Assembly (NCBI GenBank): GCA_947588905.1
Contig: CANQBB010000002.1
Coordinates: forward strand, 170-64,169
Direction: 5' to 3'
DNA length: 64,000 nucleotides
From: an uncultured Clostridia bacterium
GTDB lineage: Bacteria > Bacillota > Clostridia > TANB77 > UBA1234
Shown piece after piece: positions 2,174-52,138 of the stretch. Below the pieces are notes generated by a model, which had not been told where the DNA came from, ran no database searches, and saw only the letters and a list, made by a program, of their open reading frames with translations. Within the stretch, counting starts at the first letter, position 1. Every line of letters starts with the position of its first letter. The translations under genes were made by a program, and so were the position numbers.

Positions 2174-2375
2174 AAAATAACCTCCTATTTAAGTTATTAT
2201 AGTAAATAATATGCAAATTTTTGAAATTTGGTGTCAGAATATATTATTTAATAAAATTTTTTGAAAATAGGATAAAAAACTAATTGACTGAGTATACATA
2301 AAGTAGTATAATGTAATTTGGTAAATTTTTGTGAAATATGTTTTTGTAAAGGCATGAGAATTGGAGGAAAAATGC

Positions 2376-2741
2376 ATGGAATTTGAAATGTTGCGGGTTG
2401 ATGAACTGATAAAACCAGAAACCAAGGAGTTTAATCTCAATCCAGAAGCATGGAACATGAAATGTTGTCTGCAGTTTACACAGGGAATGGATATGGCGAA
2501 GAAACTTGCAGATGAAGTAGACGGAATTTGTATGGCTACAATACCAATGTTAGAGCATAAATATGTTATTGGAGGTTTTTGTAATCAAGGTCAAACTGCA
2601 AAAATAATGCTATTTAATGCTATAGAAACCACCCCAGAAGAGGGAAAAGTACATGTATTTATTCCTAATCCTGATTCAACAAAAGAGTTTTTGATGGATA
2701 AATGGATAAAATATCAGAAAGGAGAAATATTTGATATTTGA
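2376..2741 (+). CDS. hypothetical small Cys-containing protein (about 121 aa), GC-elevated
   Basis: GGAGG lies 8 nt upstream of the ATG at 2376. GC is about 37 % against a background of about 27 %. The gene is followed by an intrinsic terminator. Confidence 0.4.
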   Translation: MEFEMLRVDELIKPETKEFNLNPEAWNMKCCLQFTQGMDMAKKLADEVDGICMATIPMLEHKYVIGGFCNQGQTAKIMLFNAIETTPEEGKVHVFIPNPDSTKEFLMDKWIKYQKGEIFDI

Positions 2742-2744
2742 AAT

Positions 2745-2792
2745 AAAGAAGGCTAGTACAAATAAAGTACAAGCCTTCTTTAAATTTTTTTG
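2745..2792 (+). terminator. rho-independent terminator (AAAGAAGGCT ... AGCCTTCTTT + T-run)
   Basis: A 10-bp perfect stem is followed by TAAATTTTTTT. Confidence 0.6.
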
Positions 2793-40657: not shown

Positions 40658-41662
40658 TCATTTTTCGGTTTGAACCTGAACTGAAGTGCCGTCAGAAATA
40701 ATAACTACGTTTCCACTTTTATTGTTATATACTTTGGCTGTTAAGCCAAGGGCACTGATGGTATTGTTTGTGGGTTTCGAACTGTTTGCTGGAACTAGTA
40801 TAATTTGCGGGTTCACCGCTTGTAAAACTTTGTTGCTGGCATATAACCTCCCTTCAATTTTCAATCCGTGGTGAGGCATTTGGAATACATCTACATCACG
40901 AATGATGTCATAATCCAAAACCTGGTCATGAGTATAGTCACCCGTCATGAAGAAGGTCGTTTCTCCAAATTTCATGACGAAGTTTAGGGAGTTGCAATTT
41001 TCAAGACCAGAAAGCTTGTACGGGCCGACACAAGTAAATTCAATGGGACCAATCGAGAACTGCTGTCCAGGGAGCATTTGCTGGTAGGTGCCTTTTCCAG
41101 ATGGCATATACTCAGACGGAGCAGAAGCAGAGTTACCAAAAACCAAAGTTTCAGGATTACCAAACTGTTCCAGAATCGCTCTCATATTTCCTACATGATC
41201 ACCATGCCAGTGCGTGGCAATATATGCAGAAAGATGAGTTACCCCATGATTCTGCAAATAGGAAATGACCTTTTCTCTAGAATCTTTGAGTCCACCATCA
41301 ATCATGATAGCAGTATCACCAGAAATAACGAGATGTGCGTTGGCACACCCAACATTTATCTGGTGAAGCTCAAAACTCTTAGGAATTTCGGTTGGCTGAG
41401 GGGTCGGTTCTGGGGTAGGCTGAGCAGTAGGTTCAGTAGTTGTCTGGATGTTGGGTTCAGTCGTCGGTTGGATAGTTGCTTCGACCGTTGGTTCAGACGT
41501 TGATTCTGGTGTTGGCTTAGTCGACAGTTGTGTGATTGTCGTAGTGACGATGGATAATTTCTGAGAAATTATCCCGGGTTGAACCACCTCGAGAACAATG
41601 GCAGTCATCAGAACAATGACTACTACAATCTCGAGAGCAATGATGAAAGTACTTAACCGCAT
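40658..41662 (-). CDS. membrane-anchored MBL-fold metallo-hydrolase with Pro/Thr-rich linker, encoded in a GC-rich (40-55 %) segment
   Basis: Start at the ATG preceded by AAGGAGGGAGATTTTTCC (M R L S T F I I A...). One transmembrane helix, then a PT-rich low-complexity linker (TEPTVEATIQPTTEPNIQTTTEPTAQPTPEPTPQPTEIP), then a metallo-beta-lactamase domain (HWHGDHVGN, ...DVFQMPHHG). Confidence 0.75.
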   Translation of the reverse strand: MRLSTFIIALEIVVVIVLMTAIVLEVVQPGIISQKLSIVTTTITQLSTKPTPESTSEPTVEATIQPTTEPNIQTTTEPTAQPTPEPTPQPTEIPKSFELHQINVGCANAHLVISGDTAIMIDGGLKDSREKVISYLQNHGVTHLSAYIATHWHGDHVGNMRAILEQFGNPETLVFGNSASAPSEYMPSGKGTYQQMLPGQQFSIGPIEFTCVGPYKLSGLENCNSLNFVMKFGETTFFMTGDYTHDQVLDYDIIRDVDVFQMPHHGLKIEGRLYASNKVLQAVNPQIILVPANSSKPTNNTISALGLTAKVYNNKSGNVVIISDGTSVQVQTEK

Positions 41663-41934
41663 GGAAAAATCTCCCTCCTTTAGTAAAAGGTTATAATTAT
41701 ATTTTACCACATGTTTACATAAAAATCAAACTTATACAACATATTAACAATACTTAAAAATTATATTGTAAAAAAATAAATATTTAAAGCTTTATAGTAT
41801 GGTATAAAATATAATTTTAAAAATTTACATAAAATGTTGAAAAATATTAAGAAAAGTTATATAATGCAAATGATGTCAATGAAGACATTGTTTCTTTTCC
41901 ACACTTGCGACTTTTAATAAAGGAGGAAGTAAAA

Positions 41935-50611: not shown

Positions 50612-50644
50612 TTATTTATTTCATATATATAAATATATGTATTA

Positions 50645-50672
50645 AAAACGTCTAGAAATAGACGTTTTTTCT
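50645..50672 (+). terminator. intrinsic terminator (AAAACGTCTA-GAAA-TAGACGTTTTTT)
   Basis: A 10-bp stem plus a T-run. Confidence 0.7.
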
Positions 50673-50768
50673 TGACTAAAGGTCAAATACATGATATTAT
50701 ATCAACCGTGGCTGTATATTTTTATATCGAAGCGATAATTTGATTCGTGCAGAAGGAGGAGATTCTAC

Positions 50769-51383
50769 TTGGAATACAATGGAAGGTTTAATGGTTATCC
50801 ACCGAAGTGTGTTCTTGATGGTGTCAATGAATTATGTGTTATTCGTCGGGGAAATGAAAAGCATTATAAGCTTAGATTAGTAGATGAAGAAGAACTTTTC
50901 TCACTTAGAACATCTGGCAAACCGGGATTTGTTTTGAAAAGAGATGGAAAACTTTACTATGCTGAAATTGACCCAAACATCAATATCAATCTGGACATAG
51001 ATGGCCAAATTGATCATAAATGTGGTATGTGCACAAGGTGCAGTGCATTATCCGATGAAAAGGGTGGATGCGCAAAAGTACGAGATCATTCAGCAGAAGA
51101 CTATACTAGGCATTCAAGTAATAGAGTATTGATTGAACTTAGTAAAGAAAAAGCTGATTTAGTTACTAAAATTTGGACGATTGCAAAACGTATTGAAAAA
51201 TATCCATTTGTAGTAGCGGGTTATGAGACTTTTAATATGAATGTTGGGGATTCTGTGCTTAATATAAGTCTTTGCAAAAATTTTATGGGATTTGATAGAA
51301 GACCGAAAACAAATTCACAAGATGCTATGAAATTGAAAAAATCTATTGCAGAATTTTATGAATTGTTTATAGCGGAGGCATAA
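50769..51383 (+). CDS. hypothetical protein (204 aa) with a CGMCTRC Cys cluster; GC-elevated
   Basis: ORF between two strong terminators. Ribosome-binding site AGGAGGAGATTCTACTTGG; start by the track is TTG. No family recognised. Confidence 0.4.
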   Translation: MEYNGRFNGYPPKCVLDGVNELCVIRRGNEKHYKLRLVDEEELFSLRTSGKPGFVLKRDGKLYYAEIDPNININLDIDGQIDHKCGMCTRCSALSDEKGGCAKVRDHSAEDYTRHSSNRVLIELSKEKADLVTKIWTIAKRIEKYPFVVAGYETFNMNVGDSVLNISLCKNFMGFDRRPKTNSQDAMKLKKSIAEFYELFIAEA

Positions 51384-51589
51384 TGATGGAGAAAGACACT
51401 CACAACATGATTATATTTGGAATAAGAACTAGAGATAATGAGCGAAATTCTTCATTTAAAGCTTTCTGTATGACAAGAGAAATTGCGGAAAGAGAATTGC
51501 CTAAATATCCAGAATGGGATGGGGCAAGAGATGTTGCGCCAACTCCAGATGAATCTCATATTGTCCCATTAACATTGATAATGGATTAA
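51383..51589 (+). CDS. small hypothetical protein (68 aa), translationally coupled to the upstream ORF (ATGA overlap)
   Basis: Overlapping start and stop, same GC-elevated segment. No family recognised. Confidence 0.3.
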   Translation: MMEKDTHNMIIFGIRTRDNERNSSFKAFCMTREIAERELPKYPEWDGARDVAPTPDESHIVPLTLIMD

Positions 51590-51595
51590 CATAGA

Positions 51596-51626
51596 AAATC
51601 ACCAGTTAAACTGGTGATTTTTCTTG
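51596..51626. terminator. bidirectional intrinsic terminator (ATCACCAG-TTAAA-CTGGTGAT + T-run)
   Basis: A strong GC stem between convergent genes. Confidence 0.7.
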
Positions 51627-51643
51627 TATAATCGAAAAATTTT

Positions 51644-52138
51644 TTATTCTTCAAGTTTATATTTTATTTGACTATATGCCTCTTTCAGTTTTTCTTCAAT
51701 CCCTTTAGGACAGTTTGCTGGAGAAGTGCTAGGCAAATATATTGCTTCTATTTTAGTATCTGGATAGCAATATTTCATGTATAATTCATAAGATTTTTTT
51801 CCTGTTGTAAAAATTGTCTTTATATCTGTTTGATTTAATATTGCGGATATATCATTTGGAACAGCATTTTTTATAGAACTATCGCTTGATGAGTTTATTT
51901 CACAACTTTTAATTACATCGAATAATGCAATTTTATACTTCTTTAAAAATTTAATTTTTTCAGTTTTTGTTTCTCCTATTTTTTCATTAAAAACACTTTC
52001 TAAAGTTTTCCAAAATCTATTTTGTGGATGTGCATAGTAAAAACCAAGTTCTCTTGATTTAACAGAAGGAATACTTCCTAAAATTAAAACTTTTGAATTT
52101 TTAAAATATACTGGTTTAATTGTATGTTCTACAATCAT
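51644..52138 (-). CDS. DNA-deoxyinosine / uracil-DNA glycosylase superfamily protein (small family-6-like)
   Basis: 164 aa. The LILGSIPSVKS...FW motif and overall size are typical of small UDG-superfamily glycosylases. Confidence 0.65.
   Translation of the reverse strand: MIVEHTIKPVYFKNSKVLILGSIPSVKSRELGFYYAHPQNRFWKTLESVFNEKIGETKTEKIKFLKKYKIALFDVIKSCEINSSSDSSIKNAVPNDISAILNQTDIKTIFTTGKKSYELYMKYCYPDTKIEAIYLPSTSPANCPKGIEEKLKEAYSQIKYKLEE

Follow-up and report, generated by a model that had tools for sequence, protein, structure and literature searches.

Why does an AT-rich clostridial chromosome carry, between two convergent genes, a small and strongly bounded pair of overlapping open reading frames (ORFs) whose composition departs from that of their neighbors, and is this pair a defense module? 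The two frames, ORF A and ORF B, lie in a 64,000-nucleotide (nt) stretch of contig CANQBB010000002.1 from an uncultured Clostridia bacterium, hereafter the window. The original prediction recognized neither protein, pointed to a cysteine cluster suggestive of metal binding in the larger one, and took the pair to have the typical form of a toxin–antitoxin, abortive-infection, or other defense module.

With somewhat better than even confidence, the A–B cassette is regarded here as a moron-like, horizontally mobile accessory transcription unit that encodes a metal-stabilized, probably dimeric protein (ORF A) along with a lineage-specific ORF B. It is a real, moderately interesting, ordinary-looking “hypothetical” unit that points to an undescribed protein family with an unexplained composition. 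The earlier description as a compact, insulated, and compositionally foreign accessory unit is supported; assignment as a toxin–antitoxin pair or a known anti-phage system is not.

Architecture of the Cassette

Both ORFs were confirmed where they had been placed. ORF A (50769-51383, plus strand) starts with TTG and encodes 204 amino acids (aa); its Shine–Dalgarno sequence, read as AAGGAGG at 50753-50759 (plus strand), is located nine bases 5′ of the start. ORF B (51383-51589, plus strand) encodes 68 aa, or 67 aa if translation starts at the ATG at 51386, and its Shine–Dalgarno sequence, read as GGAGG at 51374-51378 (plus strand), falls within the final codons of ORF A. GGAGG is 4 nt from ATG 51383 and 7 nt from ATG 51386; the latter offers the better spacing for a ribosome-binding site, and the 67-aa product is the gene-caller version. 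The junction reads TAATG with an overlap of one base, such that the tight translational coupling claimed earlier stands, while the four-base ATGA overlap does not. Because no terminator separates the two frames, they are probably co-transcribed.

Strong hairpin terminators had been proposed on both sides, and both are present, each followed by a T run. The left boundary is the terminator of the upstream 686-aa gene (50644-50669, plus strand; AAAAACGTCTA gaaa TAGACGTTTTT, then the T run), which coincides with inverted repeat I12 (11-nt arms, 100% complementary) and folds at −11.8 kcal/mol (z = −4.0; 0/200 shuffles equally stable). The right terminator (51594-51626, plus strand; inverted repeat I5) consists of a 13-bp perfect stem, AAAATCACCAGTT a AACTGGTGATTTT, and a T run, and its hairpin (51594-51622) folds at −16.6 kcal/mol (z = −6.1; 0/200 shuffles equally stable). 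Neither hairpin was detected by a simple terminator scan. The right terminator probably acts bidirectionally, since its distance from the stop codon of the convergent UDG-superfamily gene (51644-52138, minus strand) is only 18 nt.

A sigma-A-type promoter is predicted at 50672-50700 (plus strand), in which TTGACT and TATTAT are separated by 17 nt and the latter is preceded by TG, amounting to 10/12 consensus matches plus the TG motif. The −35 element TTGACT sits within a palindrome, TTGACtaaagGTCAA (50672-50686), and the predicted transcript would begin near 50707.

The cassette is flanked by a 9-nt direct repeat, TTTTTCTTG, with copies at 50666-50674 and 51618-51626 (repeat families D1 and D2; 952 nt apart), each starting directly after a terminator stem. 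The pair may be a target-site duplication or may be due to chance, as two-copy short repeats frequently arise by chance in AT-rich DNA. Subtraction of the cassette and one TTTTTCTTG copy would leave the convergent 686-aa and UDG genes separated by just one bidirectional terminator; the notional empty site would run from the terminator of the 686-aa gene through a single TTTTTCTTG directly into ...TTTTTCTTGTATAATCG and the UDG gene.

The ORF A Family

Neither ORF A nor ORF B gave a match in scans of Pfam, NCBIfam, PHROGs, or PADLOC, in keeping with the initial failure to recognize either protein. A word-seeded search retrieved 47 relatives of ORF A (best non-self match 40% identity, 5.7e-22), none of which carries a Pfam domain or name, and a Pfam scan of 10 longer family members gave nothing consistent. 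An exhaustive profile search, for which ORF A served as the seed query of the underlying search, extended the family to 694 cluster representatives at 50% identity, 311 of them at E ≤ 1e-30; members other than ORF A score up to 7.9e-71 against the profile. The best 150 of the 694 representatives are 150-336 aa in length. A literature search on the motifs GGCAKVR and GYETFN returned no paper. As delimited by these searches, the ORF A family is undescribed and uncharacterized and comprises about 700 clusters.

The family is defined by invariant cysteines. C85, C88, C101, and C169 are Cys in 173/173 members, and H83 is conserved in 170/173. The clustered motif pointed out earlier (HKCGMCTRCS...GGC) thus contributes C85, C88, and C101 to a set completed by the distant C169, while its C91 is not conserved across the family. 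The predicted metal-site codons H83-x-C85-x2-C88 ... D96-x2-G99-G100-C101 span 51015-51071 (plus strand), and the codon of C169, the predicted fourth ligand, is found at 51273-51275 (plus strand). Spacing within the family follows C-x2-6-C-x12-C-x67-C. This degree of conservation indicates that the cluster is almost certainly a metal site, as first proposed. K57, K103, R105, E143, and E153 are each present in at least 169/173 members.

ORF A carries all hallmarks of the family, including the four invariant cysteines, the conserved motifs, and a length within the 150-336 aa range. It comprises a short N-terminal β region, a conserved core with the motifs KPGFVLK, HxC..C, GGCAKVR, IEKYP, and GYETFN, a helical insertion of ~35 aa (residues ~106-140) that it has in common with a subset of the family, and a C-terminal helix. 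The ratio of nonsynonymous to synonymous substitution (dN/dS, or omega) is 0.04-0.36 in family pairs, and ORF A is therefore a genuine protein-coding gene. Constraint is weaker in the N-terminal part (omega 0.2-0.5) than in the core (0.08-0.3). The median isoelectric point (pI) is 8.8 in the family and 8.1 for ORF A, in which no hydrophobic segment was found (maximum 19-residue Kyte–Doolittle mean 0.64); the family has no signal peptide.

Three family members of 311-336 aa (P0059, P0109, and P0173) harbor an internal tandem duplication. Their N-terminal repeat keeps the β-core motifs (...PxFILK..YY... and GFETFN) but no longer has the Cys cluster or the KVR motif. The loss of the first-repeat cluster suggests a dimeric working unit. 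Two other proteins of the window, ORF B and the product of a 121-aa ORF (2376-2741), were considered as divergent family members and rejected, as neither is related to the profile.

Confident AlphaFold models were obtained for ORF A (predicted local distance difference test (pLDDT) 83; predicted template-modeling score (pTM) 0.75) and for P0021, a typical member (pLDDT 91; pTM 0.77). In the latter, the N-terminal 70 residues form three β-strands of 17-20 residues each. Foldseek returned no match at E ≤ 0.001 for either model against the PDB, or for the ORF A model against the viral proteins of BFVD. A profile search of PDB sequences gave three weak matches (E = 0.013) to E2 acyltransferases over a short helix–strand segment; these were taken as chance, and the candidate was dropped.

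ORF B

A search of 5.8 billion proteins with ORF B returned only ORF B itself, and tblastn found nothing in 41 loci. The product is acidic (pI 5.0) and soluble, and the only match at E ≤ 1 in Pfam, NCBIfam, and PADLOC is a sub-threshold one to RseA_N (E = 0.14). The possibility that the region is a structured RNA was rejected (fold z = −1.66, no Rfam match). The A–B pair is not a conserved unit, because relatives of ORF A stand alone in the 27 non-redundant loci examined, each with its own promoter and terminator. As judged from these searches, ORF B is a species- or lineage-specific orphan passenger and not a conserved partner of ORF A.

Composition

The cassette was predicted to have a G+C content (GC) of 37-40% against a 27% background. 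The elevation is real and the figures are not: ORF A has 34.0% and ORF B 35.7% against a window mean of 28.0%, and only the 300-nt segment at 50800-51099 attains 38%. The excess lies at synonymous third codon positions, where GC (GC3) is 0.224 in ORF A and 0.261 in ORF B vs 0.135 ± 0.015 (maximum 0.161) in 11 neighboring ORFs (z = 6).

This excess extends across the family (median z 4.8), in which 75% of copies lie above every neighboring ORF (e.g., 0.43 vs 0.14 and 0.49 vs 0.21). Codons that end in A are depleted, and those with a final G, C, or T are all more frequent. Codon bias of highly expressed host genes was considered as a cause and rejected: GC3 is unshifted in the host ribosomal genes (0.147), ssb (0.115), pfk (0.05), and the AdhE gene of the window (0.128), and host high-expression bias therefore fails to explain the excess.

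The strongest compositional outlier of the window is a separate gene at 40658-41710 (minus strand), directly after spo0A (GC 0.43; GC3 0.40 vs about 0.14). It encodes a metallo-β-lactamase fold with a Thr/Pro/Glu-rich linker, has its own TG-extended promoter and terminator, and is probably foreign DNA.

Genomic Context and Distribution

The surroundings of the cassette are chromosomal. Spo0A, AdhE, TetR, MMPL, and the 686-aa coiled-coil protein are encoded before A–B, which is followed by the convergent UDG-superfamily gene, a PdaC/DUF3298 protein, an ECF sigma factor, and CysS. The order A–B–UDG recurs in four other metagenome contigs of the same species at 99.1-99.9% identity. The cassette is thus present in all five available contigs, and the variable presence between strains raised in the original prediction was not seen within the species.

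A scan of one genome per GTDB species recovered 28 ORF A-family loci, all in metagenome-assembled genomes of uncultured gut Clostridia with 23-33% GC; a search of IMG/VR returned none. As far as sampled, the family is found only in very AT-rich uncultured gut Clostridia, with one to three copies per genome, some genomes having two or three. The solo homologs occur in diverse contexts, such as beside spoIIIA, rpsF-ssb-rpsR, or murC. Among 147 neighbor proteins from the 27 loci, Pfam content is chiefly housekeeping, and no family exceeds 4 matches. Adjacency to defense genes, a check raised in the original prediction, was found in only a few loci (e.g., one CRISPR-Cas I-B set and one DpdF), the other PADLOC matches being to generic ATPases.

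The family genes occur where synteny breaks off, and often close to tRNA genes. In locus L014, the proteins upstream of the family gene correspond to those of the window (TetR 72%, MMPL 85%, and 686-aa protein 65% identical), whereas the ORF A homolog at the same site is just 36% identical, ORF B is missing, and downstream synteny is gone. L015, L020, and L022 share downstream DNA (80-82% identical) and differ in their upstream flanks, and the N-terminal halves of their proteins can barely be aligned. A tRNA gene is located 250-800 nt upstream of an ORF A homolog in five loci; one of these contains an integrase as well, together with a duplicated tRNA 3′ end. In L167, the ORF A homolog lies next to a tyrosine recombinase, a 69-aa ORF rich in GC3, and a tRNA 3′ end that is duplicated.

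Two close comparisons add detail at the sequence level. L010 and L017 are 97% identical. Their upstream flanks are unrelated from ~160 nt before the ATG, and L010 is without the last codons, the terminator, and ~1.3 kb found 3′ of the gene in L017. Between the window and L042, all nine differences in the A–B unit fall at 50768-50875, a segment made up of the first 36 codons of ORF A and the position immediately before them; seven codons are changed (three non-synonymously, four synonymously), and the next 1.48 kb are identical. This cluster of differences could mark where a recombination tract ends, or it could reflect an N-terminus that is locally hypervariable.

Regulatory Elements of the Family

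A promoter of the form TTGACAnnnTTwACATAAnnTGnTAtAAT precedes 27/32 family copies and is nearly invariant, and a strong terminator is present in every copy. The predicted ORF A promoter is a diverged form of this family-conserved promoter. One subfamily (L015, L017, L020, L022, L025, L026, L028, L029, L035-L038, and L040) harbors additional elements. The leader has a GAGAY-loop-RTCTC hairpin, in which 2/5 pairs show compensatory changes, and then CCAATAAT before the ribosome-binding site (leader form CCAATAATAAGGAGG). On the 3′ side, ATTATTGG(A)A precedes a long terminator with a conserved apex, TTCACAAATGTGAA, and a covarying lower stem. A typical member such as P0021 displays a 5′ leader hairpin plus CCAAUAAU and a 3′ hairpin apex, UUCACAAAUGUGAA. 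In the window copy, the promoter is diverged and the subfamily elements (the 5′ hairpin, CCAATAAT, and ATTATTGG with its conserved-apex terminator) are missing. An Rfam scan of the window and 10 loci returned only tRNAs and signal recognition particle RNA, with nothing at the leaders.

CCAATAAT and ATTATTGG are complementary over 7-10 nt, exceeding shuffled controls. Pairing between the 5′ and 3′ untranslated regions was nevertheless rejected, as own-gene pairs score no better than different-gene pairs (7.44 vs 7.26) and covariation was not shown. Of 100 other leaders that follow a promoter of the family type, only 1 contains CCAATAAT.

A dedicated regulon, or autoregulation through the promoter, was likewise rejected. 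The pattern TTGACnnnnTwwACATAAnnTGnTATAAT, whose ‘ACATAA’ part is built into the search pattern itself, precedes many unrelated small genes in gut metagenomes (L046-L165, e.g., L094, L098, L132, and L049), and the family accounts for just 5/125; for this reason the 29-nt pattern appears to be a strong promoter of a general kind. Of the genes behind it on AT-rich contigs, 68% lie above every neighbor in GC3 (e.g., 0.58 vs 0.17 and 0.61 vs 0.115), and L093, L105, and L109 have tandem arrays of the promoter, each copy followed by an ORF of 54-75 aa.

The window contains a second autonomous mini-cassette at 2284-2780 (plus strand), with a family-type promoter, TTGACTGAGTATACATAAAGTAGTATAAT (2284-2312; 0 expected by chance), the orphan 121-aa ORF at 2376-2741 (GC3 0.26-0.28, without a homolog or Pfam match), and a terminator of its own. 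Its site is syntenic with a tandem pair of ORF A-family genes in L020, and the position is therefore one hot spot with different cargo in related genomes.

Proposed Function and Alternative Explanations

In the favored model, the cassette brings together a predicted promoter, a leader, the two ORFs, and a terminator, placed between two convergent chromosomal genes. ORF A would be the functional core, in which four invariant cysteines and one histidine may hold a metal (zinc or an Fe–S cluster) within the conserved domain, and the protein is proposed to act as a cytoplasmic dimer. A charged surface formed by R47, K57, K103, R105, D96, E143, and E153 could bind or process a ligand, most plausibly nucleic acid, while the fast-evolving N-terminal arm, a variable β-sheet attached to the core, would set specificity. 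ORF B would be a lineage-specific add-on translated in tandem with ORF A. No homology to a housekeeping enzyme was found, and the locus is not universally conserved with native codon usage.

Several points weigh against this model. We infer horizontal mobility from composition, patchy location, and synteny breaks; a GC-richer donor was not found, and no presence/absence polymorphism was seen within the species, as 5/5 contigs carry the cassette. Selection acting at synonymous positions may instead be the source of the GC3 excess. Both promoter and transcript are predicted, as are the function, ligand, and metal of ORF A, for which zinc and Fe–S are both candidates. The dimer is suggested by three duplicated proteins, and nucleic-acid binding by conserved charged residues together with a pI that is mildly basic.

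That A and B are instead a conserved, interacting toxin–antitoxin or abortive-infection pair, one neutralizing the other, is very improbable. The tight coupling of the ORFs, their foreign composition, and the combination of a mildly basic A with a small acidic B would suit such a pair, but no homolog of ORF B was found, all other family members examined are solo with a terminator directly 3′, neither protein matches PADLOC, Pfam, or PHROGs (PADLOC-DB v2, the defense-model comparison, gives zero families for A or B at E ≤ 1), and the positional counterpart in L014 lacks ORF B. A single-gene variant, in which ORF A alone is a conflict or defense effector whose hypervariable N-terminal arm senses an invader while the metal core acts on nucleic acid, is unlikely. 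In its favor, the gene is accessory, multi-copy, and found at synteny breakpoints, it diverges faster than its neighbors (36% vs 65-85% identity in L014), its N-terminal part is under weaker constraint, the family promoter is strong and near consensus, and one homolog adjoins CRISPR-Cas I-B genes and another DpdF. Counting against it are the lack of a PADLOC match, the lack of enrichment of defense genes among the 147 neighbors, an omega below 1 in every case with no site-level positive selection demonstrated, and the failure to recognize a nuclease or NTPase motif.

Mobility itself is dispensed with if ORF A is a vertically inherited, lineage-specific, and very highly expressed gene (regulatory, structural, or sporulation-linked) whose GC3 and flanks reflect selection on expression or mRNA stability. 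This is decidedly unlikely, since GC3 is unshifted in the ribosomal genes, ssb, pfk, and AdhE, the genomic location is not conserved, and G-ending CAG, AAG, CGG, and CTG are also increased, which indicates a compositional shift and not a choice of optimal codons; it does account for the near-consensus family promoter with its extended −10, the perfect Shine–Dalgarno sequence, 5′ hairpins, and long terminators, a leader conserved beyond synonymous sites (dS 0.7 to above 2), the presence of Spo0A and SpoIIIA in the hosts, and the enrichment of T-ending fourfold and C-ending twofold codons. At the other extreme, a selfish mobile gene propagating the cassette in which it lies (for instance, a free-standing element akin to homing endonucleases) is extremely improbable. 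Variable location, multiple copies, tRNA proximity, and the TTTTTCTTG repeat would be expected of it, as would the GFVLK..GKLYY hairpin motif, which loosely resembles the GIY...YIG hairpin. However, Pfam finds no GIY-YIG, HNH, or LAGLIDADG domain in the 47 members, no nuclease of the PDB was matched by profile or by Foldseek fold search, terminal inverted repeats are missing, and the TTTTTCTTG repeat is terminator T-run sequence that may be due to chance. A further possibility, to which little credence is given, is a self-contained mobile expression cassette of an unrecognized kind in AT-rich gut Clostridia, in which a new-fold Cys4 protein would engage in genetic conflict or act on its own RNA or DNA, a high GC3 would be kept by selection and not by recent transfer, and the small GC3-rich genes behind the 29-nt promoter would be co-cargo; its elements would be the fixed-spacer promoter, a 5′ hairpin with CCAATAAT after it, and a 3′ ATTATTGG ahead of the conserved-apex terminator.

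Significance

If the moron-like model is correct, an undescribed family of about 700 clusters with an invariant four-Cys site has no Foldseek relative among solved or viral structures, and a class of small, autonomously expressed, compositional-outlier genes exists in uncultured AT-rich gut Clostridia. These genes hold a GC3 two to four times the host level, which should not persist under standard amelioration without either continual transfer or selection on synonymous sites. The cassette would also be a test case for the spread of a moron-like unit outside phages. The practical value is modest for now; even so, structural genomics and screens for defense or regulatory activity have a clean target in this family.

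Comparison with Known Systems

The MZB/DUF1998 domain of MrfA (PDB 6znp) resembles the ORF A family in being a small domain with a four-Cys metal site and no other fold relatives, and 6znp is the best Foldseek match of the P0021 model, albeit not a significant one (E = 0.013, probability 0.35, template-modeling (TM) score 0.14, root-mean-square deviation 11 Å). In MZB, the four cysteines lie close together within a coil that is flanked by two helices (PMC7797055). Those of the ORF A family are spaced differently (C-x2-6-C-x12-C-x67-C), and there is no helicase partner. Membership in DUF1998/MZB was rejected on the basis of the different Cys spacing, the non-significant Foldseek match, and the lack of a PF09369 match in the Pfam scans.

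The N-terminal strands of P0021 align with G5 domains (e.g., PDB 4fzq and 5tu8), which are elongated three-stranded β-sheets, over 75 columns with a probability of 0.93 and a target-normalized TM score of 0.52; the E-value is 0.42 and the identity 15%. G5 domains are repeats of extracellular surface proteins, whereas the ORF A family is without a signal peptide. The G5-like arm is present only as a short version in the ORF A of the window.

Type II toxin–antitoxin operons share with the cassette two small overlapping ORFs, here predicted to be co-transcribed, of which one encodes a basic and the other an acidic protein. However, the A–B pair is not conserved, the larger protein being alone everywhere else, and neither A nor B matches a toxin or antitoxin family.

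The closest parallel is afforded by phage morons, which were defined for HK97/HK022 as units with their own promoter, their own terminator, and a deviating GC (PMC3594210). The cassette likewise has its own predicted promoter and terminator, is inserted between unrelated genes, deviates in composition (GC 34-36% vs 28%), and carries cargo whose role is unrelated or unassigned. It differs in that it lies outside a prophage, among genes for TetR, MMPL, UDG, an ECF sigma factor, and CysS, and in that neither ORF has a PHROGs match and the family has no relative found in IMG/VR. A further distinction is that the promoter and terminator sequences of the ORF A family are themselves conserved.

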